IMG/VR virus record: IMGVR_UViG_3300037308_000134
Location: 1 to 64,000 of that record
Direction: 5' to 3' (one strand)
DNA length: 64,000 nucleotides
Source of the DNA: a virus
The notes beneath the pieces were generated by a model, which was given only the letters and a program-made list of their open reading frames with translations, was not told where the DNA came from and did not search any database. Made by a program: the position numbers and the translations under genes. Numbering within the stretch: position 1 is the stretch's first letter; each line of letters opens with the position of its first letter. This document shows positions 12,520-34,081 of the stretch, piece by piece.

Positions 12520-12549
12520 ATTGTATAGTACTATATCAAACTATGTCAA
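12520..12549 (-). promoter_or_regulatory. Sigma70-type promoter TTGACA-18-TACAAT
   Basis: TTGACA at 12549-12544, 3 nt after the stop of 12552..13334. TACAAT at 12525-12520. Confidence 0.55.
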
Positions 12550-15127: not shown

Positions 15128-16825
15128 TTAATTAATAGGCTTTGCTCTTTGTCTAAACCATTGCAACAAATCCATTCTTGGTTGTTGTTCAGGTTCTATA
15201 TAATACTTTAGCAACGCCTCTCCAGTAACATCACGCATAGCTGCTATTCTAGCGTAATTTAAAGCATGCAAATAATGATCTGCACCTTTCTCTATCCATT
15301 TAGCTACGTCAACCCCTGTATTTTTTTGCTTCTCCGTCACCCTCACTGATGACTGAAGATGATCATAGAATCCTTCAACTTGTTCTATATTCACTGGCAA
15401 CTCTATACGTTGACCTTGGATATCACTTATAAGATAATCTATTGACACCGTTCTGTCAAGTGTGGCTTCTTTTTTAATTTCATCCCATCGTATATATTCT
15501 TGACCATAAAATTTAGCATTGGAGTATTCTGCTGCGAAAACTTTATTTGGAAATGCTTCAATTACTTCATTAACCTTTGTCACTTCTGGTCGTTTATCAA
15601 TTACCAATATCTTTACATCAAAGTTTTTCATAATTGCTTCAACCGTTCCAATCGGTCCAAAAAAACCATTTAACGTTCCAGCCCAAACAATTCTTGGTAC
15701 ACCAGATTCTGTTTTTTTAAAAACTACACAATGTAAATATTTCACACCAACATCAACTCCAGCGTAACAACCTCTTGCATTATTATCTGGAAATAAATAA
15801 TTACGCTTACATCTGTCTAAATCAGAAGTATTTAATTGTTGACCAGTAATATCATATGCTAATCCTAAAACTTGATTATAAAATTGTTGTAAATCAGCAA
15901 AACCACTATAGCTTGCATCATTATATGCTTTAACTAATTCCTCAACAGTTCTTTGTGGATTATATAAACCATTAATTTTATATCCATGAACAGTAGACTC
16001 TGGATTTAAAGCTTCCCATCTACCATCTTTTAATCTATCTATTTTTTTACCACATTGCGTACAATGCACTATACATTTCTCCATATCTATATTTTTAAAG
16101 AAATCTAATTCTTGCCACGTTTTACATTCATCACACATAATTTGCCATACCATTTGGTTGCTTTCATTATAAGCAGCATCTATGCCAAGACCTGGAAGAG
16201 TTGGAGTAGATATTTCTCTACGCCATTTTAAATCAGAAGCTAATAAACGTTTGTCTATAAATGGAACGCTGGATTGTAAAAATCTATCACGCTCATCCAG
16301 TACAATCATATCTGCGTCTATTGTGATTATTTGCTTTTCATTTTGTGAACCACGTAAGTATAAATGACCTTTACCAATTCTTTTAAGCGCAATCTTTTGA
16401 ATAGTTTTATCAGCAGTTTCTATTTTGTCACGAAGATAGTCAGAATTTAATAAAACTGGATCAAGACGGGCTTGAACAAAATCTTGAAGATGAGCTTGGG
16501 TAGGAAACGTATAAAGTACGTTCATTCCTTTTTGTTCACATACCCACACAGATTCTGCAAGCTGACGCTCTGAAAGACCCATCTGAGCAGCTTTTTTATA
16601 AACTATGTTTGGATATTGGTCTTGATAAACCTGAACTAAATATTTACGCTTAGTGAAGTCTAATGGATTGCCACGAGCTGTTGTCCAAACAGCCATACAC
16701 CAAGTGAAGAAATCATTCAGATTCTCCTTCTTCAACTTCTGGCTCGCTAACGTCAGAAGCTTCAGATATAGTGCGTCTTGCTCTTGATCGCTTAAGGACT
16801 GCAATAAGCTCAAGTAATTCTTCAT
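15128..16825 (-). CDS. terL: Terminase large subunit (GpA-like)
   Basis: Walker B-like ADMIVLDERDRF and zinc module CDECK...CTQCGK between the ATPase and nuclease halves. Next to the portal gene. Start uncertain because of a 113-nt overlap with the upstream ORF. Confidence 0.8.
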   Translation of the reverse strand: MKNYLSLLQSLSDQEQDALYLKLLTLASQKLKKENLNDFFTWCMAVWTTARGNPLDFTKRKYLVQVYQDQYPNIVYKKAAQMGLSERQLAESVWVCEQKGMNVLYTFPTQAHLQDFVQARLDPVLLNSDYLRDKIETADKTIQKIALKRIGKGHLYLRGSQNEKQIITIDADMIVLDERDRFLQSSVPFIDKRLLASDLKWRREISTPTLPGLGIDAAYNESNQMVWQIMCDECKTWQELDFFKNIDMEKCIVHCTQCGKKIDRLKDGRWEALNPESTVHGYKINGLYNPQRTVEELVKAYNDASYSGFADLQQFYNQVLGLAYDITGQQLNTSDLDRCKRNYLFPDNNARGCYAGVDVGVKYLHCVVFKKTESGVPRIVWAGTLNGFFGPIGTVEAIMKNFDVKILVIDKRPEVTKVNEVIEAFPNKVFAAEYSNAKFYGQEYIRWDEIKKEATLDRTVSIDYLISDIQGQRIELPVNIEQVEGFYDHLQSSVRVTEKQKNTGVDVAKWIEKGADHYLHALNYARIAAMRDVTGEALLKYYIEPEQQPRMDLLQWFRQRAKPIN

Positions 16826-17298: not shown

Positions 17299-18762
17299 TC
17301 ATGCTGTTTCTATTTTAGATTTGGCGATAGGTTTAATTTCATCCATCTTCAAATCTGTTGGTGGTTTATATTCAGCTCTTTCTTTTTCCAATTGGGTATG
17401 AAGATTGGTAAAAACATCATCCCATTGTTTTACGATATTACTCCATTCGTACTGTTTAACCCAATCATATGCACGATCTGTAATAGCTTTAACTTTATCT
17501 GGATTATCATATACCCAAACAAGCTTTTTAACAGCATCATCCACATTTACCAATGGGCGTGGTCTTTCTAAATCTTGAACCCCAAATGTTGCCCACTCAG
17601 AACTTGTAGAAGCACACTTAATTGGCACTCCACGAACTTTTTCCCACAACTTATCCATATCGCTAATATCTTCTTTAGCATCATATCCATGTAGCTCAGG
17701 ATGACACGTATTATTTGGAGCAACAACCACTGTTTTGGTAGCCATTCCTTCAAAATTATAAAAACCAAATCCTTCGCCAAGCGTTGTGGATAATACACAA
17801 TTAGAAACGTTATATAAAAGATTAACAGCTTCAACTGGAAATCCAGTATTTGCACTAAATGAAGCTGGATATCCCCAATCTTTTCCAAGCTCTAAGTGCC
17901 AATTGCTTGCATACCCCTTTAATGAACCCCACACATCAGACTCTTGGGCATGAATATATAAGAAAGAATCTGGTCTACGCTTTTGGAATTCTTTAAAAAT
18001 TGCCATCGCACGTGGAATATCTTTGCGCATTTGGTTTCGTGCTATAACAGTTACAATAAACGTATCATCGGTTAATCTGTTTTCAAAATATTGTTTTCTA
18101 AAACCACTTTTAGTTTTTTCATCTAATGGTTTAAATTGATCTGGATTATAACCATGATAGATAACTTTCATTCTGCTTGTTACATTTGTTTTATTTTCAT
18201 TTAAAGTTCTATCTCCAAATTCAATCTCTTTAATTCCATAATTTGTATATGCTATTGTTTCATCAAACTTATTAATAGCGTGTTGTACCCAATTACCCTT
18301 AATAACACTATCTATCGGCCAATAAGCAACTGTTTTAAACCAAGCTTTTGGATTAACTTTCTTTTTATATGTTTCCTGTATCGTTGCCATCACATCTGCT
18401 GTTGATTGATTAAACACTGGCAATGTTTCTTCTAAGATAAATGGGTCATTTAAACAAAAAACAATATCCCACGGTGGTTTTATCTCAGGGTCTTTACCAG
18501 CAAGTGCAGCAATTAAACGTGGTCTCCCATGAAAATCTTCTGCCGTGCTAAGTGGATTTTTAGCTGGATAAATTCTGAAAGGATATTTATTTGGGTCTTT
18601 CCATCCGCCACGATCATTAATACCAATAATATCTATTTCATATTTTCCACTATTAGCTAATGGTGTAAAAACATTTTTAATAACAGTGGAAAATCCAGTG
18701 GCACAATCTGGAGTATCCCCCCACACCAACATGTAAATTGGTTTCTTTTTTTCTTCGTTCAT
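17299..18762 (-). CDS. GT-B fold glycosyltransferase (GT4-like)
   Basis: EX7E motif EGFGFYNFEGMA in the C-terminal half. Confidence 0.65.
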   Translation of the reverse strand: MNEEKKKPIYMLVWGDTPDCATGFSTVIKNVFTPLANSGKYEIDIIGINDRGGWKDPNKYPFRIYPAKNPLSTAEDFHGRPRLIAALAGKDPEIKPPWDIVFCLNDPFILEETLPVFNQSTADVMATIQETYKKKVNPKAWFKTVAYWPIDSVIKGNWVQHAINKFDETIAYTNYGIKEIEFGDRTLNENKTNVTSRMKVIYHGYNPDQFKPLDEKTKSGFRKQYFENRLTDDTFIVTVIARNQMRKDIPRAMAIFKEFQKRRPDSFLYIHAQESDVWGSLKGYASNWHLELGKDWGYPASFSANTGFPVEAVNLLYNVSNCVLSTTLGEGFGFYNFEGMATKTVVVAPNNTCHPELHGYDAKEDISDMDKLWEKVRGVPIKCASTSSEWATFGVQDLERPRPLVNVDDAVKKLVWVYDNPDKVKAITDRAYDWVKQYEWSNIVKQWDDVFTNLHTQLEKERAEYKPPTDLKMDEIKPIAKSKIETA

Positions 18763-19598
18763 ATTCCTCCTTTTGGTTCTGGTTGTGGACCGAATGATTC
18801 AACTGGCTCAAATGGACCTTTATATTCATATCGTAAAGGATCGTCATTTGTTAATGGTTTATATTGCGGGTCCCATCCCCATTTTCTTACAAAATACATA
18901 CGATTATTCTCATAAGAAAATCCATTTTTATAATTTAACTCATTATCTGTTTTGATTGTTCTTGATCCAAAATGATAAAATAAAGCTGATGCTGTCTTTC
19001 CAGCTTTAAATCCAGCCCGCAAGATACGATTATGCATATCATTATCTTCAAAGTATGCCATTTGGAATTGATCATCAAATAATCCTGGCACTGGCTCTTT
19101 AGTTCCAAGCTCTTTTTCCCTAAATCTATTAATAAAATCATTCTTAACCATAAAACATGAGAAGTGTGGCGCTTCGTCAAATGAATCATTAATTTCCACT
19201 TCCTCTAACTTATTTTTTACTGCATACGAATTAGCTGTCCACATAATAAATTCTGGATGAGTTTCTGCAAATTGAACAAGATTATCTATACAGTCTGATC
19301 TGAAAATAATGTCATTATTTGGAATTAAAATATAATCAAAACCATTCATTGTGCCATGAATAATTGCTTGATTCCACGCCTTAGAAACACTATTTCTATC
19401 GCTCTTAAAATAAATATACTTTAACTTTTGTTCTTCTAAAAATTCTTGCAGTTTATTTTGTTGTTCTTCTTCTGCATAAGTTTGCACAATACACACAAGC
19501 ACTTCATGTTTAGTCTGAATTGATTTAATAGTCATTTCAGTAAACTCACGTTGAATGTCATTAGATATGTATGTTGCTATTCCAATACAAATTTTCAT
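18759..19598 (-). CDS. GT2-like glycosyltransferase
   Basis: MKICIGIATY... N-terminus and ILIPNNDIIF acidic motif. Start trimmed to the ATG after SD GGGAG (TAAtATG junction). Confidence 0.55.
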   Translation of the reverse strand: MKICIGIATYISNDIQREFTEMTIKSIQTKHEVLVCIVQTYAEEEQQNKLQEFLEEQKLKYIYFKSDRNSVSKAWNQAIIHGTMNGFDYILIPNNDIIFRSDCIDNLVQFAETHPEFIMWTANSYAVKNKLEEVEINDSFDEAPHFSCFMVKNDFINRFREKELGTKEPVPGLFDDQFQMAYFEDNDMHNRILRAGFKAGKTASALFYHFGSRTIKTDNELNYKNGFSYENNRMYFVRKWGWDPQYKPLTNDDPLRYEYKGPFEPVESFGPQPEPKGGI

Positions 19599-19599
19599 A

Positions 19600-20196
19600 T
19601 TATCTCCCAATAATTAAATGTGGTCTATCTTCAAAAACAGATTTACTAAATTTAAAATGCTTCAAGTTATATTTAGACTTAAGTCTATTATATATCTCTT
19701 CAAAATCAGACTTAGAATATCCAAATACTTCAGAGTCTTTTGGTGCTACTTCTACAATGTCACCTATAAGTAGTTTACCACCTTCTGCTGTTACTCTTAA
19801 AAGCTCAGAGATAGTTGCTTCAAACATATTACGTGGAACATATTGAATCAAAGCCATTGTAATCACTTTATCAAATTGCTCATCATAAAACATAGTTAAG
19901 TTATTGGCAGCAGAATGTACAATATGAACTTGATGTCTTTTATATGCAAGACTAACCATTTCTCTAGACCAATCAACTCCAACAATAAATTTACATTTAT
20001 CTTTTAAATATGGATAAAACTCAAAAGACCCACAACCAACTTCAAGCACGTTATCGTATTTACTGAACTTCATTAACTGATCAACTTGATCAAAAGCTTG
20101 TTCATAATCATATCTATCTGGTCGTAAATTTTTCCACAATAAACTATTTTCTTCTTTCTTGGGGTGATCTTCCCAAAATAAAGCCCAATTAAACAT
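19600..20196 (-). CDS. Class I SAM-dependent methyltransferase
   Basis: Motif I VLEVGCGSFEF plus downstream acidic and hydrophobic motifs. Confidence 0.7.
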   Translation of the reverse strand: MFNWALFWEDHPKKEENSLLWKNLRPDRYDYEQAFDQVDQLMKFSKYDNVLEVGCGSFEFYPYLKDKCKFIVGVDWSREMVSLAYKRHQVHIVHSAANNLTMFYDEQFDKVITMALIQYVPRNMFEATISELLRVTAEGGKLLIGDIVEVAPKDSEVFGYSKSDFEEIYNRLKSKYNLKHFKFSKSVFEDRPHLIIGR

Positions 20197-20638
20197 ACGC
20201 CCTCCTTTTCATGACAATTACTTGTCCATATTGTGTAATATCTTCAGACCATTTTCTGAAACCAAGTTTTCTATAAATTCTTAAAGCTGCTGTATTTGTT
20301 TTAAAAACATCAAGCCACAACTCACTATTCATCTGACCAATTAACATCTTAAATAATTGTGAACCGAAATGTTTTCCCCTAAACATTTTTATAACGCCAC
20401 CGCTTATCCAATTCTTTCCATCCTCTTTCTTTTGAATAAAACCATATCCAATCGGAATAATTCCATTCCAAAATAAATATGCTGATCCAGGATGATTTGG
20501 ATATATTTCATTAAACCATTTTATCTGCTTTGATATTGTTAACTTAGATTGATCGTGCGTCAAAAATGTACGACAATCATTTCTGATAAACATTAAGATA
20601 ATCGCTTGCCACAACTTTTCAACTTTGGTCATTTTCAT
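20189..20638 (-). CDS. GNAT-family N-acetyltransferase
   Basis: RGKHFGSQLFKMLI (R/Q-x-x-G-x-G/A) acetyl-CoA motif. 149 aa. Confidence 0.65.
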   Translation of the reverse strand: MKMTKVEKLWQAIILMFIRNDCRTFLTHDQSKLTISKQIKWFNEIYPNHPGSAYLFWNGIIPIGYGFIQKKEDGKNWISGGVIKMFRGKHFGSQLFKMLIGQMNSELWLDVFKTNTAALRIYRKLGFRKWSEDITQYGQVIVMKRRAYV

Positions 20639-21582
20639 GCGTATCCATACTTCTTGACATGCTCCATATACTCTGCAACTCCACTCTCCAGAGTATATCT
20701 AGGCTGCCAGTTTAGCATCCTCTTGGCTTTTTCATTACTCAATGATCCACGTTTTGGTCTATCAAAAACAGATTTCACTTCATAACGCATATTTGGATAA
20801 TACTTCTGTACAACTTGAACATATTCCAGAAGTGAAGCAGGCTTCCCACCACTAATATGAAACGCTTCGCCAACTGGAGCTTCTAAAATAACTTTTGCTA
20901 ATCCTTCAACAAAATCTTTAATATATATATAGTCTAATACAGCTTCTTTGTTTACCCAAAACGGTTCATCATTAATTGCTTTATTAATAAATATCTGTGT
21001 GGCACGATTGTTTATATCGCCAAATCCATATACAGATGTTGTTCTTACGACATTCCAATTAGTTAACTGTGACTTAGCAAGTAGTTCACCAACCATCTTA
21101 GAAATTCCATATGGCGTTTTAGGATTGAGCAATTGATCTTCTGTAGCAGTTCCCTCAAAATCACCATACGCAAAAAGAGATGACATATATACATACTTAT
21201 CTATTTTATATTTTTTAGCCAAAGAAACAGCATCATAAGAAATCATAATATCGCCACTTAATTGTATTTGTGATTCATCACTTTCAAATGGCTTCTCAAG
21301 AGGTGTAGCTGCTAAGTTAACAATAATATTTGGTTTCTCATTTTCCATTAGATATGTTCCAGCACGTGCAAAGTTTTGAGCATAATATGGTATTTCATGC
21401 AAATGAAGCAACTCTGAAGCCCTAAAATCCCTTACTTTTTCATTGTAAACACCATCAACTTCATAACTACGAACATTAGAATCTACAACTATAATAGATT
21501 GTCCAAGTTCATATAAATGATGTGTTAACCATGAGCCAATAAAACCAGCTCCGCCAATAATTAAGATTCTATTTTCTTTCAT
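20635..21582 (-). CDS. NAD-dependent sugar epimerase/dehydratase (extended SDR)
   Basis: IIGGAGFIGSWL Rossmann motif and YGISK catalytic YxxxK. Confidence 0.85.
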   Translation of the reverse strand: MKENRILIIGGAGFIGSWLTHHLYELGQSIIVVDSNVRSYEVDGVYNEKVRDFRASELLHLHEIPYYAQNFARAGTYLMENEKPNIIVNLAATPLEKPFESDESQIQLSGDIMISYDAVSLAKKYKIDKYVYMSSLFAYGDFEGTATEDQLLNPKTPYGISKMVGELLAKSQLTNWNVVRTTSVYGFGDINNRATQIFINKAINDEPFWVNKEAVLDYIYIKDFVEGLAKVILEAPVGEAFHISGGKPASLLEYVQVVQKYYPNMRYEVKSVFDRPKRGSLSNEKAKRMLNWQPRYTLESGVAEYMEHVKKYGYA

Positions 21583-22337
21583 GATTTTGTCTCCTCTACT
21601 ACAAACTGAGCTGTTGCTCCGCTATCTAAAACGACAGAGCCTGGCTCAGCTCCACCATACTTTAAAGATTGCCATCTACCAGCACCTGTCCAACTGCCTT
21701 CGTGGTAAATGTGAACATCAAGCACTTTTTTAATTGGATAAAACAGAAAACCAGCTTTTGCAAGCTTCTCCCAATATGCCCCATCAGCTGCTCCCCACAG
21801 TCCTTTATCATTCGGCCAGTTACCACATACTTTAATACAACTTGCTCTATGCATCACAGAAGAATGGTCTACAAGAGTATTTGGATTATCCAAAACATGT
21901 TCAGCATCACGGGTAGAAGATGCTATTTCACGATCATCAAATATACGAATCATTCTCTGTCTTCCATATACAACGCTTACATCTGGATGTTCATCTAAAT
22001 AATCAACCATTGTTTTTAATCTATAATCAAAAAAATAATCATCATCACAAAGATAAGTAACAAATTCCCCATGAAGCATGGTAAAAGCTATGTTAACCAA
22101 ATCTGCATATCTTACTGTTTTTACTCTATCTTCATCTTTAACATCTGACTGATAAAATATTACTTTAGGGTGATTTTTATACTTATCTAAAATCGCCAGT
22201 TGTTGTGGCATTTTAGAATTATCATCCATCAGTAATATCTCAAAATCTTGATACGTCTGATTCAACACGCTTTGTATAGCTTTCTCAAGCATGTCTGGTC
22301 TATGATATGTTGTGATTATGACAGAAACTCTTGGCAT
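21579..22337 (-). CDS. GT2-family glycosyltransferase
   Basis: MPRVSVIITTYHRPDMLEKAIQSVLNQTYQDFEILLMDDNS. Start trimmed to this Met (TAAtATG junction). Confidence 0.85.
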   Translation of the reverse strand: MPRVSVIITTYHRPDMLEKAIQSVLNQTYQDFEILLMDDNSKMPQQLAILDKYKNHPKVIFYQSDVKDEDRVKTVRYADLVNIAFTMLHGEFVTYLCDDDYFFDYRLKTMVDYLDEHPDVSVVYGRQRMIRIFDDREIASSTRDAEHVLDNPNTLVDHSSVMHRASCIKVCGNWPNDKGLWGAADGAYWEKLAKAGFLFYPIKKVLDVHIYHEGSWTGAGRWQSLKYGGAEPGSVVLDSGATAQFVVEETKS

Positions 22338-22338
22338 A

Positions 22339-23553
22339 TTAAAAATAAGACTGATCAAAAAATTCTTTAAATGACGCTATTACATAATCAATCATCTCAT
22401 CAGTGACACTTGGATGCGTACTGACAAAAAACGCTTGTCGCAAAATCATGTCTGACTCTTTAAGATTTGTAACAACACTATAATGATAACCAGTCCTATA
22501 TGCTGGTTGTTTAGTAATATTTCCAGCAAATATGACACGTGTTTCTATATTCTTCTTCTCTAGAAACCTCCGCAACTCTGGTCGCTGATCTGGTGTTTTC
22601 ACTATAATTGGAAATGCAAACCAACTTACATCTGCATCTGGTAATGTATATGGAAGCTGTAAAAATGACTCTAATGGCATTAATCCTTCTAATAAACGGT
22701 CATGATTATGCTTTCTCGCTGCTTTAATTGCATCTAATTTAGTCAACTGTACTCTTCCCATAGCCGCCTGGAGTTCAATTGGTTTCAGATTAAATCCTTT
22801 TGTTATGTATGTATAACGAGCTGGATAATCTTCTGGCAAACCTTCATATTGCTGATCTAAATCTGAATCACCAACTCTTCCCCATTCCCTAAGAGACCTA
22901 GCAATTTTATTCACACGCTCATGATTGCAAAACATTGCTCCGCCTTCTCCAGTGGTTATAATATGAGCTGCGTGAAAAGATGTTGCTGACACATCTGCCC
23001 AAGCTTCTACTGATTTCCCTTTATACATCGTTCCAAATCCATCACAATTATCAACAATCACTTTCCACCCTTTAGATTTTGCAAAATTAATCACTTCCTC
23101 ATAATCACCAATATTTCCAGCAATATTCACAAGCGCTATTGCTCCAACATCAGCCATCATTTCTGGTGGCATCGCATTTAGTGTTTTAATATCTATAAAC
23201 AGCGTGCGTGGATCAACATCTACAAACACAGGTTCATACCGATTAACAATTGCGGCGCTAACAATCGTTGGAAAGTTAACGGCTGGAATCAAAATCTTAG
23301 TACCTGGCGTCATATCAAGTGCAGACATTCCAAGTAATAAAGCTGAAGAACCTGAATTTGTGTATATTGCATACTTAGCGCCAACATGCGCAGCTAATTC
23401 TTCTTCAAACAATCGTGCCTCTTCATCAATAGTCCACCAATTTCTATCTAACACACTCTGGATAGCTTTAATTTCCCTCTCATCTATTACTGCTCCACCA
23501 TATTTTATTCTGGTTTTGCCTGGTATAAATTCTTCATGAGTATCAGCTTGCAT
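22339..23553 (-). CDS. DegT/DnrJ/EryC1-family PLP/PMP enzyme with His replacing the Schiff-base Lys; candidate sugar 3-dehydratase (ColD/E1-like)
   Basis: The family motif SFH-x-x-K-x-ITTGEGG reads SFHAAHIITTGEGG here. Confidence 0.6.
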   Translation of the reverse strand: MQADTHEEFIPGKTRIKYGGAVIDEREIKAIQSVLDRNWWTIDEEARLFEEELAAHVGAKYAIYTNSGSSALLLGMSALDMTPGTKILIPAVNFPTIVSAAIVNRYEPVFVDVDPRTLFIDIKTLNAMPPEMMADVGAIALVNIAGNIGDYEEVINFAKSKGWKVIVDNCDGFGTMYKGKSVEAWADVSATSFHAAHIITTGEGGAMFCNHERVNKIARSLREWGRVGDSDLDQQYEGLPEDYPARYTYITKGFNLKPIELQAAMGRVQLTKLDAIKAARKHNHDRLLEGLMPLESFLQLPYTLPDADVSWFAFPIIVKTPDQRPELRRFLEKKNIETRVIFAGNITKQPAYRTGYHYSVVTNLKESDMILRQAFFVSTHPSVTDEMIDYVIASFKEFFDQSYF

Positions 23554-23555
23554 AT

Positions 23556-24404
23556 TTATCTCCTTTCATACTTCCAATCTTTTGTAACGGTCATTGGAAT
23601 AAAATGTTTTTGATCACGATATTCACCTAAAAATCTTTTTTCGGCTTCTAGATAAATATAATGATCTCCTTTATTAATCTCATATGCGAGATTATGCTTA
23701 TCACACCATTGCATTGATGCTTTTTGATATTCTGGTTCGGCACACGAAGTAATACCACCCATATGATCTATTTCTGTACCAAGAACAGCCACAGACCAAC
23801 CACTCTCTATTGTTCTAATTGACCAGATTCTGTCATAGAAATGACATGGAGTAATACTGTTATCTATCTTTAAAAATGGAACAACTGTTGCTCTGAAAAG
23901 CATAAATAAGCTATCTAAAACAACTGCTGGCTCAACTCCAGTCACTCTCAATCCAGCTGCCTGAGACTGTCCTTTGCTACCATTGAAGAAACACATTGTT
24001 CCACCACCTCTTCCACCATTTTCATCTGCTTCATATGAACCAACTAAACCAATAACACCTATATGATTGAAATCTTGAAAAGCTTTAACTGCTCTTTCAT
24101 CCCAACCATGCTCGTAAAAAATAACATCATTATGAATAAGACCAACATGATCAGTTTCTGGATTTTTAACATACTGCATCAATTGAAGTAGTGGATAATA
24201 ATATCCTTTATTTTCATCGTTCCTGATAATTTTTATTTTAAATGGAACATCTGGAAACTCGTCTAATGAATACTTATCAGAGGAATTGTTATCTATAATT
24301 ACAAATAGAAAGTCATCCGTATTCTTAACGGTATTCTTCAAGCTTTCTACCAACGATTTGGTGAATTGCTTCTGATTAATAACTGGACATCCTAAAATAA
24401 TCAT
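23556..24404 (-). CDS. GT2-like glycosyltransferase
   Basis: FLFVIIDNNSSDKY motif near the N-terminus. Start trimmed to the ATG at a TAAtATG junction. Confidence 0.55.
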   Translation of the reverse strand: MIILGCPVINQKQFTKSLVESLKNTVKNTDDFLFVIIDNNSSDKYSLDEFPDVPFKIKIIRNDENKGYYYPLLQLMQYVKNPETDHVGLIHNDVIFYEHGWDERAVKAFQDFNHIGVIGLVGSYEADENGGRGGGTMCFFNGSKGQSQAAGLRVTGVEPAVVLDSLFMLFRATVVPFLKIDNSITPCHFYDRIWSIRTIESGWSVAVLGTEIDHMGGITSCAEPEYQKASMQWCDKHNLAYEINKGDHYIYLEAEKRFLGEYRDQKHFIPMTVTKDWKYERR

Positions 24405-24405
24405 A

Positions 24406-25593
24406 TTATCCACACGTACATAATATATCTTTACCTTTGGTTATATTAATGTTTTCACATTGACTAATAAAGTTTTTACACAAAGTCACAATTCTTTCTT
24501 TATCTTCTTGCGTTAAACTCCAATTCACTGGAATACATACCATGCGATTATTATATTCTGTAACATTCGGTAACACACACTTAGATGACTTAAAAGCAGA
24601 GTGAGTGTCATTGCGGGCATGTACACGAGATACTTGTACACCATTTTGCTTCATATATTCCACAAAACGATCTCTATACTCAGCTTTGGGCAAAACAACC
24701 GTGTAAAGCCAATAAGATGGCTCACAGCTATATTGTAAGTACTTTGTGTGAGGAACATAAAAATCAGCTGGAAGCGAAGCTTGATAGTATTTAGCATTAT
24801 CACGATGCATCTTTAAAATCCTGTCAATGTGATCCATTTGCACAATTCCAATAGTAGCAGCCACATCATTCATATGAAACTTATATCCCCAATCTACGAT
24901 ATCTTCTTCTATACGTGAATCTTTTCTATCTGTTTCTCTATCAATACCATACCAACGAAGCAATTTTCCACGCCGATAATCTTCCGTAGACTTACACATT
25001 AATAAACCGCCATCTACAGTAGTGATATGTTTAATCGCTTGTAAACTGAACATTGTAAAATCAGCTAACGTTCCAACTTTGCGATTTTTATATGTAGTAC
25101 CAAACGCATGTGCAGCATCTTCAATAACTTTAATATGATACTTTTCTCCAAGCTGCATAAGCGCATCTATATCACATGGAGTTCCCCCCCAATCAACACA
25201 TACAATCGCTTTAGTACGTGGAGTAATTTTACGCTCTACATCTAAAACATCAATTAAACCACTTCTCTTATCTACATCAGCCCACACAACTTTTCCATTA
25301 TTTGCAAGTATTGGCAAATTTGTCGCAGCACAAGTCATTGGAGTAGTAATCACTTCATCTTCTGGAGATTGTATACCAGATAATCTGTAAGCAAGATGAA
25401 GACCAGCTGTTCCATTATTTAATGTGAGAATGTTTCGTGTACCGAAGTATTTTGAGAGAATTTGTTCAAACTCGTCAACCTTTGGACCCTGACCTATATA
25501 ACCCGAATGAAGCACATCCAAGAGCGGTTTATCAACCTCTTTTGGCACATGTACAGCAAATAAAGGTATAAATTTCTGTGCTTTTGTGTCCAT
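24406..25593 (-). CDS. DegT/DnrJ/EryC1-family sugar aminotransferase
   Basis: FSLQAIKHITTVDGG with the canonical Lys retained. Confidence 0.8.
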   Translation of the reverse strand: MDTKAQKFIPLFAVHVPKEVDKPLLDVLHSGYIGQGPKVDEFEQILSKYFGTRNILTLNNGTAGLHLAYRLSGIQSPEDEVITTPMTCAATNLPILANNGKVVWADVDKRSGLIDVLDVERKITPRTKAIVCVDWGGTPCDIDALMQLGEKYHIKVIEDAAHAFGTTYKNRKVGTLADFTMFSLQAIKHITTVDGGLLMCKSTEDYRRGKLLRWYGIDRETDRKDSRIEEDIVDWGYKFHMNDVAATIGIVQMDHIDRILKMHRDNAKYYQASLPADFYVPHTKYLQYSCEPSYWLYTVVLPKAEYRDRFVEYMKQNGVQVSRVHARNDTHSAFKSSKCVLPNVTEYNNRMVCIPVNWSLTQEDKERIVTLCKNFISQCENINITKGKDILCTCG

Positions 25594-25636
25594 ACTATGA
25601 CTTATTTATACACCCAAATACCGTAAAAGGCAAGTG

Positions 25637-26539
25637 TTAAAGTTTATAGCCTCTAATCTTGTCTTTTTGATATTCACCAAATGTATATTTAATACTATTA
25701 TCCCTAAAGCTAAAATCTTCCAAAACATATAAAGGCGTAACTTCTTTCCATTTATTAAAAAACAACTCTGCGTTTGTATCGTGTGTCCATTTATCTCCAG
25801 TACGCCCCTTCTCATCACCTTCACGACTTTGAGCCGTTTGAGAGTCTATCCATGTCTGATATTGACCACGATTGGCTGTTAATCCAGACAAATGATGACA
25901 CGAAACACCAATCACAATATTGTTATACCCATGCCTTAATGATTCTAAGCAAATATCTCTATCATAGTAATGATGATATTTATATCTCTGATCAAATCCA
26001 CCAGTCTTACGCAACAACTCCATATCTATAATCATAGTAAAACCATCTACAGTGGCACATGGATGCCAATCTGTTTTTAACCTCATACCATGTTTTTCAG
26101 CTTCAAGCATATTTGACATGCCTGGAGCTTGACCAGACTTATCTACATCTTGAATTCGCTCACCAACTTTACCAATCCCTTGAACTCCAAAAAATCCAGC
26201 AACGCCTATATTTCCCATACTTTTGATTAATTGCAAAACAGTAACATCCCAATCTTTCTCATATATAAACACATCATCATGCATAATGGCTAAATATTCC
26301 GTTTGACAGTTCTCATACGCTTGCTGCATTGTTTTAACCAATCCAATATTTTGTTCATTACGTATATAATTAAGCTTACTTGGTTTAATATAATTACGAA
26401 AAACATCTTCTACTGGATCAGTAGAACCATTATCTATAATTAGAAATTCGGTAGCACGTGAAGTATTATCACGAAGGAGCTTCAGTATTCCGATAGCATC
26501 GGATAACTGATCCATAATCGGTATAGCAATAGTTAACAT
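25637..26539 (-). CDS. GT2-family glycosyltransferase
   Basis: EFLIIDNGSTDP and AIMHDDVFI motifs. Confidence 0.7.
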   Translation of the reverse strand: MLTIAIPIMDQLSDAIGILKLLRDNTSRATEFLIIDNGSTDPVEDVFRNYIKPSKLNYIRNEQNIGLVKTMQQAYENCQTEYLAIMHDDVFIYEKDWDVTVLQLIKSMGNIGVAGFFGVQGIGKVGERIQDVDKSGQAPGMSNMLEAEKHGMRLKTDWHPCATVDGFTMIIDMELLRKTGGFDQRYKYHHYYDRDICLESLRHGYNNIVIGVSCHHLSGLTANRGQYQTWIDSQTAQSREGDEKGRTGDKWTHDTNAELFFNKWKEVTPLYVLEDFSFRDNSIKYTFGEYQKDKIRGYKL

Positions 26540-27399
26540 ATTGTTTTATATTCTTCATTACTATTAATGATCGCTTCTAATATCTTTGTTAAAGATTTTG
26601 ACTTTTTCTTTAATACCCAATACATTCCATTAACATCTTTTGGTAAACACGCTCCAGAATATGGACCCTTATCTTTTAAACCATATATCGGGTTATAGAT
26701 ACCTTCACAACTTTTAGCGACCAACGGAAAGATAACTTCTGCTTTTGCATTAAAAATGTTACACGCAACCCTCATTTCATTAAAAAATGCTATTTTACAA
26801 GCGTTGTATATATTGTGAACATATTTTTCCATTTCTGCATCTTGTAACGAAACTCTAACTATTGGAGCGTCAAAATATTTAAAAACACTTTCTAAATAAT
26901 CACCAGATTGCTTATCTAACTGACCAATTAATGTTAATCGTGGATTTAAAGCGTCTTCCAGCGCACGATCTTGTCTAAGAAACTCTGGATTCATGCATAC
27001 TCCAAAATCTTTCTTTGGTTTTTTATTACTATGAATAGATATGTGTCTTTTAATTTTATGTGACGTACCTGGTGGAACTGTGCTTTTAATTGTAACAACA
27101 AAATATTTTTTAGTTCTTTTAAGTTGATAAGCCAATTTAAGCGTAGCTTTCATTAAATATTCCAAATTAATTGCACCATTTACAGTTGGCGTTTGAACTG
27201 TCAAAAAATAAATGTCACACAATAATTTTGCATAATTAACATCTTTTTCCAGATATGTTTCACATTTATATTTTTGTTTTAAGCTTATAAGCACATCTTT
27301 ATCTCTACCAACAAAAATAACTTCAAAGCCACGATGAATTAAAGCTATTCCAACAGCTTGTCCAACAACTCCAGCTCCAATGATGCATATTTTTTTCAT
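26533..27399 (-). CDS. UDP-glucose/GDP-mannose dehydrogenase family protein (short form)
   Basis: MKKICIIGAGVVGQAVG Rossmann motif, NPEFLRQ motif and catalytic Cys context YSGACLPKD. Appears to lack the C-terminal domain. Confidence 0.7.
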   Translation of the reverse strand: MKKICIIGAGVVGQAVGIALIHRGFEVIFVGRDKDVLISLKQKYKCETYLEKDVNYAKLLCDIYFLTVQTPTVNGAINLEYLMKATLKLAYQLKRTKKYFVVTIKSTVPPGTSHKIKRHISIHSNKKPKKDFGVCMNPEFLRQDRALEDALNPRLTLIGQLDKQSGDYLESVFKYFDAPIVRVSLQDAEMEKYVHNIYNACKIAFFNEMRVACNIFNAKAEVIFPLVAKSCEGIYNPIYGLKDKGPYSGACLPKDVNGMYWVLKKKSKSLTKILEAIINSNEEYKTIC

Positions 27400-28769
27400 A
27401 TTGTCTCCCTAACAAAGTATAGATTATCTCCGATAAGCTTATCTTTAAATCCATATGCATTAATGATACTTTTTAATTTTTTAAATGGAAACGCTTGATC
27501 TCCACCTATCCATGTTCTCATATTTTTAAACAATAATAATGCGGGAATTTTATCTGGAATTTTTTTGAAATATTCCTCAGCTTTATCTTTCTTTTTTAAT
27601 TTATGCTTAACAACCTCTAAACTATCAACATTACGCTCTATTAGCTTTATCCAGTTTTGTGCAAAAACATCTTCTGAAAACTTTTCAGAAACATGCTTTT
27701 TCAGCGTTAATCCAATTTGTTTTGTTTTTTGTAAATCTAAAATTAACTCTCTAGCCATTAAATATTGTGTCTTTTTCTCTGTAAAAATATATGGATAATT
27801 CGCTGGTAACAATTCTGGAAACGTTGCTTTATTTGGAGCTATAACCGCATGCCCAAGCAACATACTTTCAGCAATGCTTTGACAAAAAGTTTCATGCTGT
27901 GAATTAATCATATTAATATGAGCTGGAGCAATAAAATCTAAATATTGATCATGATCCAAGATGGAAGTTGGATAAATAACATACGGCTTACTTAGTGTTT
28001 CATTATTTTTATCTATGGAAGAAACAATTACTTTAAATGGAATTTTATCTGAATATAACTTATCAAATACTTCAAACGTATCTTGCCAATTCTTATATGT
28101 TTGAAGTCTATGATTATAAACAAATGTTGGTTCAGAATTGCTCTCTTTTATATGTTTATCATAATCTTCTGTTCTAAAACCATAATAGATAACATCACCT
28201 TTATATTTTGGAGTACTGCTAAAATGTCTTCTAAAGTTATCATCAAGCATACGCTTACAATTTAAACTATTAAAAATATTCATATGTGCTGACATTGAAC
28301 CAGCAATTTGAAGCATAATTATTCCACGATCACCAAAGTCTGTCATTGCATATGGCAAATCATTATGAATAACATAATGATGCTGATTTACAACAAATGG
28401 TGTTCCCTCTGGAGTAACTGCCTGAAAAAGCGGAATAAATTGAGATGTTATTTCTGGAGTATTATTAATAAACACATCATATGCATATTTTTGATTGATT
28501 CTTTGCCAATCGTCAACATTAAAATGAGTTACCATCTCCTTTTTATTAACAGAGATATAAAATGGTATTCGTAAAACATTTTCTTTATGTTCTTCAAAAA
28601 ATCCATCATTTTTATATTTCCAACCAATGTTAGACGGAAAAAGATATAAAAAAATCCAGTCTTTTCTAAACTTTAATATTGCATTAATTAGTCTTTTGTT
28701 AAAAACATAAGTGCTATCAGCATTTAAATTATAACTATTGCTAAACATCGGATATATTAAAATTACCAT
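27396..28769 (-). CDS. Probable GT-B fold glycosyltransferase
   Basis: The C-terminal segment QSIAESMLLGHAVIAPNKATFPELL resembles the GT1/GT4 donor-binding region. Weak call. Confidence 0.4.
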   Translation of the reverse strand: MVILIYPMFSNSYNLNADSTYVFNKRLINAILKFRKDWIFLYLFPSNIGWKYKNDGFFEEHKENVLRIPFYISVNKKEMVTHFNVDDWQRINQKYAYDVFINNTPEITSQFIPLFQAVTPEGTPFVVNQHHYVIHNDLPYAMTDFGDRGIIMLQIAGSMSAHMNIFNSLNCKRMLDDNFRRHFSSTPKYKGDVIYYGFRTEDYDKHIKESNSEPTFVYNHRLQTYKNWQDTFEVFDKLYSDKIPFKVIVSSIDKNNETLSKPYVIYPTSILDHDQYLDFIAPAHINMINSQHETFCQSIAESMLLGHAVIAPNKATFPELLPANYPYIFTEKKTQYLMARELILDLQKTKQIGLTLKKHVSEKFSEDVFAQNWIKLIERNVDSLEVVKHKLKKKDKAEEYFKKIPDKIPALLLFKNMRTWIGGDQAFPFKKLKSIINAYGFKDKLIGDNLYFVRETI

Positions 28770-28772: not shown

Positions 28773-29348
28773 TCATAATTCACCAGCTAATTTTAAGATT
28801 TTAATCAAATCATAATTCAACTTGTGACAAACAGCTTTTACTTGCTCTTCATTAACTTTATCTATACGAAAAGTAATTGCAATTCTATCACTATTAGCTT
28901 CTCCAGCAGCTTTATCAAGCTGATCTTCTAAATCACTAAAATCAAGACGTTCTAACGCTTCACTAGCTAATGTTGGCTCTTCTAAATCAATAGAATAATC
29001 TTCCCAATTAATATCTTCCGTTTCTTTTGCTAAATCTGCAAGCATTGTATCAACATAATATCCAGCTCTATCATTATCAGATAAAGAATATTCCAATTTT
29101 TCAGATTCATTTTTAGGTTTAACTATGCTAACCCAAATCTGAGTTAAACCAAGCTCTTTCATAGCTTTTAAACGCATATTTCCACCAATTACTTCACCAG
29201 TTTCTGTAATAAGTAATGGTTTATACTGTCCAAAACGTTTAATTTGTTTTTTTAATCTTTCTAAACCTTCCTGTGTAATATCACGTGGGTTTTTGTCCCA
29301 TGTGTGTAATTTTTCTATATCCCAAAATAATTTTTGTTCTTCTGCCAT
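28773..29348 (-). CDS. ParB-like nuclease domain protein
   Basis: NPRDI...YKPLLITETGEVIGGNMRLKA matches ParB/Srx N-terminal domain motifs. Start trimmed to MAEEQ after SD AAAGGAG. Confidence 0.7.
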   Translation of the reverse strand: MAEEQKLFWDIEKLHTWDKNPRDITQEGLERLKKQIKRFGQYKPLLITETGEVIGGNMRLKAMKELGLTQIWVSIVKPKNESEKLEYSLSDNDRAGYYVDTMLADLAKETEDINWEDYSIDLEEPTLASEALERLDFSDLEDQLDKAAGEANSDRIAITFRIDKVNEEQVKAVCHKLNYDLIKILKLAGEL

Positions 29349-29349
29349 A

Positions 29350-29670
29350 TTATCTCCTTTCAAATCCTTTTACTTTATGTCCAGTTGATTTCCAACCAAA
29401 CTCATCATCTTTTAAATTATATCGTGTTTCTCTTGGATCAACACGTGTACCTTTGGTAGTTATACCAACAGTTCTTCCATGTTCATCAGTGCCAAAAGCT
29501 GTAACATCTTTATATTTATTAAACACAATATTCTTTTTATGAATAGTGCTTACCATTCGTGCTACATCTCCACAAACAGAACATTGTGTTGTTGTATGCC
29601 AACCACGATATTTTAACTCAAATATATGAGAACACTTTTCACACTGATATTTAATTTTCCACGGTTTCAT
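29350..29670 (-). CDS. Zinc-ribbon protein, unknown function
   Basis: CEKC...CSVCG pairs. 106 aa. Confidence 0.6.
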   Translation of the reverse strand: MKPWKIKYQCEKCSHIFELKYRGWHTTTQCSVCGDVARMVSTIHKKNIVFNKYKDVTAFGTDEHGRTVGITTKGTRVDPRETRYNLKDDEFGWKSTGHKVKGFERR

Positions 29671-30771: not shown

Positions 30772-31857
30772 TCATATTTTACTGGTCAATCTGGTTTTGG
30801 TCAGGGTAAACCAGTACTCATCCTCTTCTATACCTATAATACTTCTATCTAATTTTCGTGCTTCGTCAAGAATTGTTCCAACTCCACAAAATGGATCAAG
30901 AACAACATCTTTTACATTGGTGGATATAGATATTAATTTATTAGCAACAAACTGAGGAACATCTCTTTCATGACTGGAAGATGCGTCAAAATCCATCTCA
31001 AATACATCCTTAGTATAGTCAATTAAGTTATTTGTATATTTATCAGACTTACTTGCCCATATAATCGTCTTATGAGCTGGAATTAACGTAGAAATAGCTG
31101 TTACCTTACCAGCTGTTTTGTAATACCAAATTAAATCACGAATAACAGTAAGACCATGATACATGCATAGTGGAGCTAAACTAAAAATAGAATTATAATC
31201 TCCAAATAACATAACAGAACCAGTTGGTTTTAGTTTTCTGGATACCATTTCAAACCAAGAATAATCTCCAGATGGCGGATAACTAATAATAGCGTCAACA
31301 GATGCTTCAGCTATATCATCTAAATGTTTCATTGATGGATATATAAAAACACTTCCAGCTGGAACTATCGGTGTAGACGTAGCAACTGTTTCTGATTCAA
31401 CTGGAACAGCTTCAACAGCTTTTTTAATCTCATCTTGTCGTTTAGACACAGTATATGCACGAATTTCTCTCTCCAAATCAGGTCTACGCAATGTTTTTGC
31501 TTTTTCAATCCACTCATCTGCTATTTCTGGCTCTTTTCTGACGATTGGAAGTATCTTCCATAATTTTGTATAGTCTGTACCAACAAGTGAAGCGTGCTTC
31601 ATTTTACGCTCTACAATATACGTTTTATATAAATCAACAAATAAATATCCTAAACGTTTAGAGATATCAACATCTGGAGAACTTAACCAAAGAGGAAATG
31701 ATTCGTAGCCCAACTCTTTATAATATGCGTTATCGTGGATTTCAGAAAGAAGTTCTGCCATTACCCATGTATTTTCACCTATATTTCGCTTTAGCTCTAT
31801 AATCTTCTGCTCAAATTCGTGAGCAGTATTAGCACGTTTTTCAATAGCTTTAGACAT
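30772..31857 (-). CDS. DNA methyltransferase (beta-class N4/N6 type) with an N-terminal extra domain
   Basis: Motif IV-like IISYPPSG precedes motif I VLDPFCGVGTILDEARKLDRSIIGIEEDE. Confidence 0.75.
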   Translation of the reverse strand: MSKAIEKRANTAHEFEQKIIELKRNIGENTWVMAELLSEIHDNAYYKELGYESFPLWLSSPDVDISKRLGYLFVDLYKTYIVERKMKHASLVGTDYTKLWKILPIVRKEPEIADEWIEKAKTLRRPDLEREIRAYTVSKRQDEIKKAVEAVPVESETVATSTPIVPAGSVFIYPSMKHLDDIAEASVDAIISYPPSGDYSWFEMVSRKLKPTGSVMLFGDYNSIFSLAPLCMYHGLTVIRDLIWYYKTAGKVTAISTLIPAHKTIIWASKSDKYTNNLIDYTKDVFEMDFDASSSHERDVPQFVANKLISISTNVKDVVLDPFCGVGTILDEARKLDRSIIGIEEDEYWFTLTKTRLTSKI

Positions 31858-34078: not shown

Positions 34079-34081
34079 TTG

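Follow-up and report, generated by a model that had tools for sequence, protein, structure and literature searches.

A hypervariable sugar gene cassette beside the terminase genes of a metagenomic phage family and its possible link to a Ser/Thr-rich phage protein

To our knowledge, glycosylation of the phage particle has been shown experimentally in a few actinobacteriophages only, and the multi-gene sugar clusters of environmental phages are, as far as we know, routinely labelled host 'LPS' (lipopolysaccharide) auxiliary genes without evidence. The flagellin and pilin glycosylation islands of bacteria pair the gene of a conserved structural protein that bears Ser/Thr with variable sugar genes, often for pseudaminic or legionaminic acid, and soluble glycosyltransferases (GTs) glycosylate this protein in the cytoplasm. 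Examples come from Campylobacter and Clostridium (PMC3068675, PMC13317340). In mycobacteriophages, glycans are found on capsid and tail-tube subunits, and phage GTs are proposed to act there (Freeman et al. 2023, as cited in PMC12619734). The Megavirinae, such as Mimivirus, carry clusters of 6–33 genes with rare, bacterial-type amino-sugar pathways and GTs, and their content is specific to each clade (PMC10117803). Cyanomyovirus S-SCSM2R has 13 predicted GTs (PMC12801897) and pelagimyophages have many LPS-type genes (PMC7029224). Here we describe a block of twelve sugar genes at 17299-28769 in a stretch of viral DNA of 64,000 nucleotides (nt), together with a Ser/Thr-rich protein of 172 amino acids (aa), p172, from the same stretch. 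The whole stretch, called the window below, is positions 1-64,000 of IMG/VR record IMGVR_UViG_3300037308_000134, and about 39 kilobases (kb) of the 103-kb genome lie outside it.

The evidence throughout comes from sequence comparison and predicted structures: profile searches with Pfam, PHROG and NCBIfam and their cut-offs, and AlphaFold2 (AF2) models compared by Foldseek with PDB and BFVD. Our reading, to which we give a probability of about 0.5, is that the cassette drives soluble, cytoplasmic glycosylation of a phage protein, and that the best candidate for the acceptor is p172, probably a component of the virion surface. An original prediction, made from the letters of the window, had suggested glycosylation of virion proteins. 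Comparison with other phages favours this suggestion, since the p172 family is linked to GT or methyltransferase (MT) genes in six of seven other lineages. The same prediction held the gene set to be far more than phages use, which does not agree with the numbers for S-SCSM2R and the pelagimyophages (PMC12801897, PMC7029224).

A constant site, a variable cassette and a conserved Ser/Thr-rich protein

No GenBank phage is related to the window at the DNA level, and the large terminase subunit (TerL) of the window is only 25–26% identical to those of GenBank phages (Herelleviridae-type terminases). As GenBank holds no close relative, no cultured relative can be used as a guide. Metagenomes contain a phage family with TerL 50–85% identical to that of the window, many of the contigs being 76–104 kb. 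A scan of IMG/VR with the single TerL sequence gave no match; scans with alignments of the GT-B protein and of p172 succeeded. The bins of metagenome-assembled genomes to which relatives belong are labelled Actinomycetota, Elusimicrobia and Patescibacteria, the last being one 5-kb contig from the genome-collection scan, and because these labels contradict each other we claim no host. In the literature searched we found no description of the phage family, of p172 or of the leader in front of its transcription unit.

We compared the window in a synteny table with 18 related metagenomic loci (L001-L018), and all 18 have a sugar cassette at the same site. The block had been read as an island inserted between the terminase genes and a ParB-like gene. 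Since every relative examined has a cassette there, the insertion was rejected, and the block is one allele of a glycan locus that is hypervariable throughout the family. What is constant in the family is a homolog of the 283-aa GT2-like protein, the 487-aa GT-B, the probable small terminase subunit (terS), TerL, portal, the Mu F-like protein, one or two small genes and p172, and further on the GT-A/MT fusion with a gene of about 150 aa. The 487-aa GT-B, 50–81% identical across the 18 loci, is the conserved anchor of the cassette and adjoins the terS-like gene. Homologs of the 283-aa protein (36–73% identity) are found just upstream of it in every related locus that extends there, and often a homolog of the 300-aa GT2 is found at the far, 5' edge (50–55% identity in L005, L007, L017 and L018). 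The earlier placement of the block next to head and packaging genes is correct for the terS-like, TerL, portal and Mu F genes, but not for major capsid or tail genes, none of which was found in the 64-kb window.

Between the conserved GT2-like gene and the far edge, the cassette genes differ from relative to relative. L001, with a TerL 85% identical, has the gene set of the window and one more MT. L002 (1-3486) has three DegT genes, a split thiamine-diphosphate (TPP) enzyme and a NUDIX protein, and L003 (1-7095) and L004 (1-7096) encode two GNATs together with NeuB, a CMP-sugar synthetase, WbqC and a PIG-L deacetylase, a set suggestive of a route to nonulosonic acids. The cassette of L007 has six genes only. 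The two 5'-most genes in the cassette of the window (26533-28769) have a guanine-cytosine (GC) content of 0.29–0.31 and no homolog in the related loci examined, and they might be a recent addition. The ParB homolog, upstream of the cassette in the window, is found between the GT-B gene and terS in L007, L008, L009 and L016. LAGLIDADG homing endonucleases are interspersed in the cassette regions of L002-L004.

At the constant end of the locus, p172 is the most conserved protein of the region, with 70–94% identity in the family as compared to 53–85% for TerL and portal. Ser and Thr make up 29.7% of its residues, S/T/A/G/N 60% and K+R+D+E 7%; it has no Cys, and no signal peptide was seen when the sequence was read by eye. 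The AF2 model (predicted local distance difference test, pLDDT, 85.7) is all-beta, a beta-sandwich, without a significant match in Foldseek searches of PDB and BFVD, in profile comparison with PDB sequences, among Pfam-type profiles or in PHROGs. A FimA-type pilin fold was considered and set aside, the top Foldseek matches (template modelling score about 0.35, E about 0.01) being too weak to use. A second Ser/Thr-rich protein is cut by the start of the window. It is rich in Ser, Thr, Gly and Ala with short repeats, e.g. 'VNSVKAYI' and 'VNSIKANL', and recalls the repeat-rich, fibre-like proteins that follow the p172 homologs of L042 and L048. Both proteins had been called structural, a term that goes beyond the data, as searches of GenBank phages gave no homolog and fold comparison gave no significant match.

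Distant homologs of p172 (28–42% identity) are present in seven other phage lineages, which share with the window essentially no other BLAST-detectable gene except homologs of the GT-A/MT fusion. GT or MT genes, which belong to unrelated families, flank the p172 homolog in six of these lineages (GT4, GT2, Glyco_trans_1_4, RGP, GT9, FkbM). The homologs are also found in or near structural modules, after capsid genes of the SU10, Mu gpT or Phage_capsid_3 type or after a tape-measure-like protein. Upstream of the homolog in L019, L040 and L043 there is an SU10-type capsid gene and then GT4, GT2-like and Glyco_trans_1_4 genes, and immediately upstream in L042 a Phage_capsid_3 capsid gene, a GT2+GT4 fusion, an MT, a GT2 and a GT-B-like gene. 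L022 and L041 have two Glyco_transf_9 genes immediately upstream, before them a 1241-aa protein read as tape measure, and fibre-like proteins after. A Mu gpT-type capsid gene, an RGP-family GT and a short-chain dehydrogenase/reductase (SDR) precede the homolog in L021, whereas GT1, FkbM MT and GT2 genes do so in L044-L048; in all of these a fusion homolog follows immediately downstream (phmmer E 1e-66 to 1e-74 for L044-L048). The homolog P0209 has an SU10-type capsid gene upstream and a 451-aa Methyltransf_8/11 protein immediately downstream. Within the family of the window, the fusion gene directly adjoins p172 in L007, as its homologs adjoin those of p172 in L021 and L044-L048. The fusion homolog of L048 matches Anp1 and Glycos_transf_2.

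In bacterial protein glycosylation, the genes of the targets (flagellins, pilins, serine-rich adhesins) are usually found beside those of dedicated transferases. The recurrent linkage of p172 to GT families that are not homologous to each other is the strongest evidence for p172 as the acceptor of the glycan, or at least as an obligate partner. The composition of the family points the same way: 31 alignment columns are at least 80% Ser/Thr across lineages, and the Ser+Thr content is 22–32% with the low charge kept even in distant lineages, with the exception of L049 (17.5%). We consider p172 to be the best candidate for the acceptor and probably a (surface) component of the virion.

The transcription unit of p172 starts with a conserved leader (Table 1). 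A promoter, a hairpin and a terminator-like hairpin are found in the same layout at the syntenic place in nine relatives, and all five base pairs of the first hairpin show compensatory changes across 10 phages, with the AUYCNG loop kept. No Rfam family matches the leader, and the window holds no second complete copy of it. In layout it resembles the promoter-proximal leaders that serve antitermination or attenuation, as at lambda pR'-tR'. The 121-aa protein encoded between the leader and p172 has homologs in several relatives (32–67% identity) and no Pfam match. Hairpins with U-tracts comparable to the terminator after p172 are found in L001, L004, L005, L012 and L018. Promoter, leader and terminator would fit a strongly expressed and tightly timed gene. 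For the sugar block itself we do not claim a late operon, as a consensus scan gave 91 promoter-like sites and 88 in shuffled sequences.

The enzymes and the route that they may form

The twelve genes of the block are consecutive ORFs (open reading frames) on the minus strand, and their ends overlap or nearly abut. Profile searches class the products as six GTs, two DegT enzymes, an SDR, a truncated UDP-sugar dehydrogenase, a GNAT and an MT. The original prediction had named the same twelve glycan genes, and its six GTs (one GT4-like, four GT2-like and a probable GT-B) agree with the profiles, although two of them are below the Pfam cut-offs, the 283-aa protein with Glycos_transf_2 (E 2.9e-4, 21.2 bits, cut-off 23.3) and the 457-aa protein with Glycos_transf_1 (GT1; E 4.8e-5, 23.4 bits, cut-off 26.4). 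The canonical DegT, the GNAT and the S-adenosylmethionine (SAM)-dependent MT that it listed are supported by Pfam, and so are the RmlA-like, fusion and cupin genes that it placed elsewhere in the window.

The 487-aa GT-B has an EX7E motif (E330-x7-E338) in its C-terminal domain, invariant in five family members, and its AF2 model (pLDDT 93.4) shows the two Rossmann domains of the GT-B fold. The top Foldseek match is B736L of chlorovirus NY-2A (3oy2, E 3.5e-19), followed by BshA, MshA, PglA and PimA, which are GT4 enzymes. By its predicted fold and the EX7E motif it is classed as a GT4-like retaining GT-B. The 457-aa GT-B at the other end has an EX7E-like 'ETFCQSIAE', read from the sequence, and no BLAST homolog in L001-L018.

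The nearest solved structure to the 404-aa DegT protein is E1, CDP-6-deoxy-4-hexulose 3-dehydrase (3bcx), with ColD second. The Lys-to-His change seen earlier in this protein is confirmed by the alignment to 3bcx and 3bb8, in which 'AAHII' is opposite 'PAHHI' of E1 and the His is at the position of the catalytic Schiff-base Lys; the H220K mutant 3bb8 has K there. Opposite the Cys-rich insert of E1, 'DCYCAPGCDNTCKK', the alignment has gaps. The Cys residues of this insert presumably bind the [2Fe-2S] cluster. Because the insert is absent and the NCBIfam RfbH score is below the cut-off (326 bits, cut-off 423), the protein would be a ColD-like 3-dehydratase free of an iron-sulfur cluster and not of the E1 subtype. 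The 395-aa DegT protein keeps the canonical catalytic Lys ('SLQAIKHIT'), and its nearest solved structures are the putative aminotransferase 4xau/4zwv (E 2e-79) and CalS13 (4zas), which we take to be TDP-sugar C4-aminotransferases.

The SDR had been predicted as an epimerase or dehydratase, and only the first part of this stands. It has GxxGxxG and YxxxK, but its score against the dTDP-glucose 4,6-dehydratase model is 88 bits as compared to a cut-off of 365, and 'SSLFAYGD' is found where a dehydratase has T-D-E. The closest solved structure is 6zl6 (E 3e-22), deposited as 'epimerase domain-containing protein', which we take to be a UDP-GlcA (UDP-glucuronate) 4-epimerase. The SDR was therefore rejected as the 4,6-dehydratase of the pathway. 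No other 4,6-dehydratase was found in the 64-kb window, which makes the deoxy-amino sugar route incomplete as encoded, and the expectation that the window holds a self-sufficient route was not borne out. The UDP-sugar dehydrogenase-like assignment is right for the N-terminal and central domains but not for the C-terminal UDP-binding domain, which neither Pfam nor NCBIfam found. The NCBIfam NDP-sugDHase match (169.7 bits, cut-off 189.8) covers profile positions 1-297 of 413, and the catalytic-Cys motif 'GACLPKD', read from the sequence, is kept. The truncation is not a frameshift artefact, because the following gene begins 7 nt ahead of the stop codon, and with two of three domains the protein is not to be classed as a canonical UDP-glucose 6-dehydrogenase.

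Outside the block, the RmlA-like protein (NCBIfam rmlA 228 bits, under the cut-off of 360) is found in L001 and L002 and is absent from the other relatives. The N-terminal GT-A domain of the fusion gave its best alignment with A197, a GT of the archaeal virus STIV (2c0n, E 0.004), the 'DDDVVP' motif included. The 149-aa protein that follows the fusion was compared with the equivalent 157–158-aa gene of L044-L048, with an hhalign probability of 12%. The cupin is possibly an isomerase or epimerase of nucleoside diphosphate (NDP)-4-keto sugars.

The substrates and the order of the steps, like the acceptor, its location in the virion and its biological role, are what we infer from these genes. A hexose-1-phosphate would be activated by the RmlA-like enzyme, and an NDP-4-keto-6-deoxyhexose made by a 4,6-dehydratase from the host or encoded elsewhere. 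The His-type DegT would remove the 3-hydroxyl by the ColD-like route, without an iron-sulfur cluster, and the Lys-type DegT would aminate C4. With N-acetylation by the GNAT and decoration by the MT, the product would be a sugar of the 4-acetamido-3,4,6-trideoxyhexose type, and the dehydrogenase-like protein and the epimerase-type SDR could possibly supply a uronic acid. Assembly of a conserved core on Ser/Thr of p172, priming included, would be the work of the conserved transferases, namely the fusion, the 487-aa GT-B and the 283-aa GT2-like protein. The variable GT2 enzymes would then add lineage-specific sugars, after which the chain would be capped by methylation. The outcome would be a conserved protein scaffold beneath a glycan that can be swapped, comparable to flagellin glycosylation islands or the fibrils of Megavirinae, and shielding, adhesion or avoidance of decoys are candidates for the payoff. 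More tentatively, and with rather more doubt, the p172 family may be a widespread, undescribed scaffold of a virion glycan coat, primed by the fusion, diversified by exchangeable cassettes and governed in its expression by the leader with its hairpin and terminator.

Other possible targets for the glycan

The usual reading of large phage clusters of GT and NDP-sugar genes is host-surface remodelling (PMC7029224, PMC12801897, PMC12911398), in which nucleotide sugars and GTs feed the lipid-carrier pathway of the host and alter LPS, capsule, teichoic acid or S-layer glycans, for example to block superinfection or to keep progeny from sticking to lysed cells. The dideoxy-amino sugars and the nonulosonic-acid route suggested for L003 and L004 are classic O-antigen and capsule chemistry, the hypervariability among close relatives is like that of O-antigen loci, and the absent 4,6-dehydratase implies a dependence on the sugar metabolism of the host. 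We nevertheless regard this as unlikely here. A hydropathy scan found no polytopic membrane protein among the twelve cassette proteins, and one candidate across the cassettes of the 18 loci, and without such a protein the island has no flippase, polymerase, phosphoglycosyl transferase or ligase. Nor did Pfam scans of the island and the window find Gtr-type seroconversion families (GtrA flippase, GtrC-type GT, acyltransferase_3, polymerase). The GTs are encoded by the virus itself, six in the block and one in the fusion, in the manner of autonomous glycosylation, and they would work on soluble acceptors, independent of lipid-carrier and membrane machinery. Furthermore, in all relatives examined the cassette keeps its place next to the packaging and head genes, and a change of the host surface gives no role to the repeated linkage of GT and MT genes with a Ser/Thr-rich phage protein made in the cytoplasm. 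Seroconversion of a lysogen is also unlikely, because we noticed neither an integrase nor lysogeny genes in the window.

Sugars could instead be attached to a modified base (e.g. a 5-hydroxymethyl-pyrimidine) around the time of packaging and protect the DNA from host nucleases. Published phage DNA-glycan clusters contain several enzymes of the GT-A and GT-B types as well as epimerases, and often have ParB-like, MT and terminase genes nearby (Pyle et al.). Our cassette has a ParB_N gene on one side and the terminase genes on the other, and the window also encodes an N6/N4 DNA methylase. There are two MazG-like pyrophosphohydrolase genes on the minus strand, at 968-1758 (Pfam match at 968-1426) and at 34843-35178 (seen by eye), and a weak match to DUF1599, 'nucleotide modification associated', which possibly reflects manipulation of the nucleotide pool. 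A ThyX/Thy1 gene precedes the p172 homolog by a few genes in L044 (6317-7003), L046 (5936-6619) and L048 (5420-6145), with Pfam support in L044 and L046 (E 1e-56 to 6e-60) and by sequence motif only in L048. ThyX is, however, an ordinary dTMP synthase and not a hydroxymethylase. Pfam searches of the larger ORFs of the window and of the lists for the relatives found no TET/JBP dioxygenase, ThyA-type hydroxymethylase or C5-cytosine MT. The glycans reported on DNA are mono- to trisaccharides of hexose, N-acetylhexosamine or heptose, and the chemistry here goes further, with 3-deoxygenation, amination at C4, N-acetylation and methylation, with nonulosonic acids in relatives, and with six to seven GTs. 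p172, because only 7% of its residues are charged, is implausible as a DNA-binding partner. Modification of DNA is thus improbable, more so than remodelling of the host surface.

Least probable of all is another target or a free glycoconjugate (a non-virion phage or host protein, a small molecule or a polysaccharide) with p172 as a lectin-like or carrier partner: the beta-sandwich of p172 belongs to no recognisable family and could bind sugars, the GT4 fold neighbours of the GT-B include the small-molecule transferases BshA and MshA, and the GNAT substrate could be a protein instead of a sugar, but the Ser/Thr-rich, low-charge composition kept in distant lineages fits a glycosylated surface protein better than a lectin, and the p172 homologs of other lineages have a structural context.

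Several points weigh against our proposal that the cassette glycosylates p172. All support for it is computational. The linkage of p172 to GT and MT genes is guilt by association in a handful of lineages, without a formal background rate, and the tested ORFs of L049 and L050, whose p172 homolog is weak and partial, include no GT. The capsid and tail genes are not in the window, with about 39 kb of the genome outside it, no cultured phage has a p172 homolog (tblastn of GenBank phages), and the fold of p172, having no significant match, does not give its position in the virion. With the 4,6-dehydratase missing and the dehydrogenase truncated, the sugar route is incomplete as encoded. ThyX near the p172 homologs of L044, L046 and L048 and the ParB-like gene flanking the cassette would fit a role in nucleotide or DNA metabolism, and rare sugars and hypervariability are equally typical of O-antigen and capsule loci.

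If glycosylation of p172 is nonetheless true, such clusters are, at least in this family, virion-building genes, which bears on adsorption, on the avoidance of decoys, proteases, grazers and antibodies, and on how 'auxiliary metabolic genes' are counted in viromes. Should p172 be the scaffold of a glycan coat, the tailed phages that infect uncultured hosts would come in 'serotypes', like the varying O-antigens or flagellin glycans of bacteria. p172 and the GT-A/MT fusion are a concrete, cloneable pair for testing, and the natural cassette variants for rare sugars could possibly be used in glyco-engineering of phage particles.

The coordinates of the genes and elements are collected in Table 1. 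The start of TerL was set at M44 of the ORF, as in database protein P0001 (522 aa, 100% identical). In several relatives the TerL and portal genes are enlarged to 800–970 aa, and several have intein or homing-endonuclease Pfam domains. The ribonucleotide reductase at 8351-11332 (-) is 993 aa long as compared to 765 aa in L001 and 673 aa in L002, and PHROG matches to HNH endonucleases at residues 390-483 point to an intein-like insert. An RNA-repair-like set at 34081-40698 (-) comprises tRNA-Gly(UCC), tRNA-Pro(UGG), an RtcB-like ligase (36810-38012, by eye) and an RNA ligase (39751-40698, Pfam RNA_ligase). At about 44000-46650 the genes switch from the minus to the plus strand, the GC content goes from about 0.35 to about 0.40 and the GC skew is reversed, and there are gene-poor gaps at 44597-45311 and 45899-46461. 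Among the proteins of the plus-strand block, MoxR-type AAA, vWA, RadC/JAB, RadA/KaiC-like and Fic-like ones were recognised by eye. Two candidate cell-wall hydrolases were seen, a Peptidase_C39_2 protein with a long coiled-coil tail beside small membrane proteins at 3308-4396 (-), and a glucosaminidase-domain protein at 48436-48858 (+).

Table 1. Positions of the cassette genes, their neighbours, the p172 unit and the satellite genes, numbered from the first nucleotide of the window
Feature	Position	Strand	Evidence
Retaining-type GT-B (GT4-like), 487 aa	17299-18762	-	phrog_2170 E 4e-39; no Pfam match
GT2-like glycosyltransferase, 283 aa	18759-19610	-	phrog_29879 E 2e-13
SAM-dependent methyltransferase, 198 aa	19600-20196	-	Pfam Methyltransf_11 E 3e-14
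GNAT acetyltransferase, 149 aa	20189-20638	-	Pfam Acetyltransf_1 E 2e-8
SDR, NDP-sugar epimerase-type enzyme, 315 aa	20635-21582	-	Pfam Epimerase E 8e-28
GT2 glycosyltransferase, 259 aa	21579-22358	-	Pfam Glycos_transf_2 E 1e-20
DegT-family 3-dehydratase-like enzyme, 404 aa	22339-23553	-	nearest solved structure E1, 3bcx (E 7e-68)
GT2 glycosyltransferase, 285 aa	23556-24413	-	Glycos_transf_2 E 6e-10; Glyco_tranf_2_5 E 8e-7
DegT-family NDP-sugar aminotransferase, 395 aa	24406-25593	-	Pfam DegT E 2e-86
GT2 glycosyltransferase, 300 aa	25637-26539	-	Glyco_tranf_2_5 E 2e-14; Glycos_transf_2 E 4e-13
UDP-sugar dehydrogenase-like, 288 aa	26533-27399	-	UDPG_MGDP_dh_N E 1e-28; central domain E 1e-13
Probable GT-B glycosyltransferase, 457 aa	27396-28769	-	phrog_2170 E 1e-11
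ParB N-terminal-domain protein, 5' boundary of the cassette	28773-29363	-	ParB_N E 5e-6; phrog_620 E 1e-22
Probable small terminase subunit (terS-like), 194 aa	16713-17297	-	directly upstream of TerL; conserved in all relatives; no Pfam or PHROG match
Large terminase subunit (TerL)	15128-16696	-	Pfam GpA_ATPase, GpA_nuclease; phrog_675 E 8e-114
Portal protein	13294-15126	-	Pfam Phage_portal E 1e-26; phrog_2662 E 2e-63
Mu F-like head morphogenesis protein	12552-13334	-	Pfam Phage_Mu_F E 1e-6
Conserved leader of the unit of the 121-aa gene and p172	12446-12549	-	directly after the Mu F gene
Leader promoter	12549-12520	-	sigma-70-like, 11/12 consensus match
Leader hairpin	12501-12486	-	5 bp, loop AUYCNG
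Leader terminator-like hairpin	12467-12446	-	followed by a run of seven U, ahead of the ribosome-binding site
121-aa protein from ATG at 12420 (ORF p132)	12055-12420	-	ribosome-binding site and ATG read from sequence; co-transcribed with p172
p172, Ser/Thr-rich low-charge beta-sandwich, 172 aa	11502-12020	-	composition, AF2, conservation
Intrinsic terminator directly 3' of p172	11421-11457	-	14-bp stem, U-rich tail, fold z-score -4.7
RmlA-like sugar-1-phosphate nucleotidylyltransferase, 249 aa	7546-8295	-	Pfam NTP_transferase E 6e-52
GT-A/SAM-methyltransferase fusion, 572 aa	5818-7536	-	Pfam Methyltransf_11, Methyltransf_8
149-aa protein	5379-5828	-	follows the fusion gene throughout the family; 38–75% identity; no Pfam match
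Second Ser/Thr-rich protein, N-terminal 282 aa, cut by the window start	1-847	-	Ser+Thr 29.8%
N6/N4 DNA methylase (N6_N4_Mtase type)	30772-31857		Pfam
FdtA/WxcM-like cupin, 152 aa	62237-62695	+	Pfam FdtA E 1.8e-8, 34.7 bits, above the cut-off of 23

Comparison with known systems

The phage DNA-glycan clusters (Pyle et al., bioRxiv 10.1101/2023.12.21.572611) are similar to our locus in having GT-A and GT-B enzymes, epimerases and extra GTs near ParB-like, MT and terminase genes. The 5mYOX/TET or ThyA-type hydroxymethylase that defines them was, in contrast, not found in the window, a C5-cytosine MT was not found either, only the methylase of the N6_N4_Mtase type, and the sugar chemistry here is more elaborate. 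The flagellin and pilin islands differ from it in that they serve cellular appendages, which are exported after modification, and the resemblance of p172 to FimA-type pilins is weak and not significant.

In the fibrils of the Megavirinae and the capsids of chloroviruses, a surface layer of the virion is glycosylated without the secretory machinery of the host (PMC10117803), as we propose here, and the best structural match of the 487-aa GT-B is from a chlorovirus (B736L of NY-2A). These are eukaryotic giant viruses with unrelated virion proteins, whereas the present locus is from a tailed phage of about 100 kb with a new family of candidate acceptors.

Tetrasphaera phage TJE1 (NC_019930, our L051) is the only cultured phage in which we found a clear homolog of the GT-B (32% identity) in a like setting; Synechococcus phages S-EIVl and S-CBS4 also have homologs, that of S-EIVl in a different setting. 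At 4929-10272 TJE1 has a nucleotidyl transferase, a guanylate kinase, a sugar epimerase, an MT and the GT-B homolog, upstream of terS, TerL, portal and a head-morphogenesis gene. It differs from the phage of the window in being 49 kb, in that only the GT is BLAST-detectably homologous, and in that no p172 homolog was found. No report of glycans on TJE1 virions was found in the literature searched, and the phage would be a practical system for testing virion glycosylation.

The T4-like cyanophages and the pelagimyophages are aquatic phages and have, as is the case here, multi-gene sets of GT and NDP-sugar genes in hypervariable regions (PMC12801897, PMC7029224). Their clusters are in tail-fibre and host-recognition regions and are read, without experiments, as modifiers of the host surface, whereas the present cassette has a fixed place beside terS and TerL and a link to a Ser/Thr-rich protein that is conserved, and the two groups of phages are not related. 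The mycobacteriophages are alike in that GTs encoded by the phage have been proposed to modify virion proteins of cytoplasmic origin, as we suggest here. In them, a few GTs are reported to act on the C-termini of the major capsid and tail-tube subunits, whereas here six to seven GTs and a nucleotide-sugar pathway are combined with a small, dedicated, Ser/Thr-rich candidate acceptor, and the content of the cassette varies between relatives.

Sugar clusters in phages and glycosylation of virions were thus known before, and what is new here is an acceptor candidate that can be tested and a cassette architecture like that of O-antigen loci. The closest genomic parallels are the LPS-type clusters of cyanophages and pelagiphages, and the closest functional parallels are the virion glycosylation of mycobacteriophages and the clusters of the Megavirinae.

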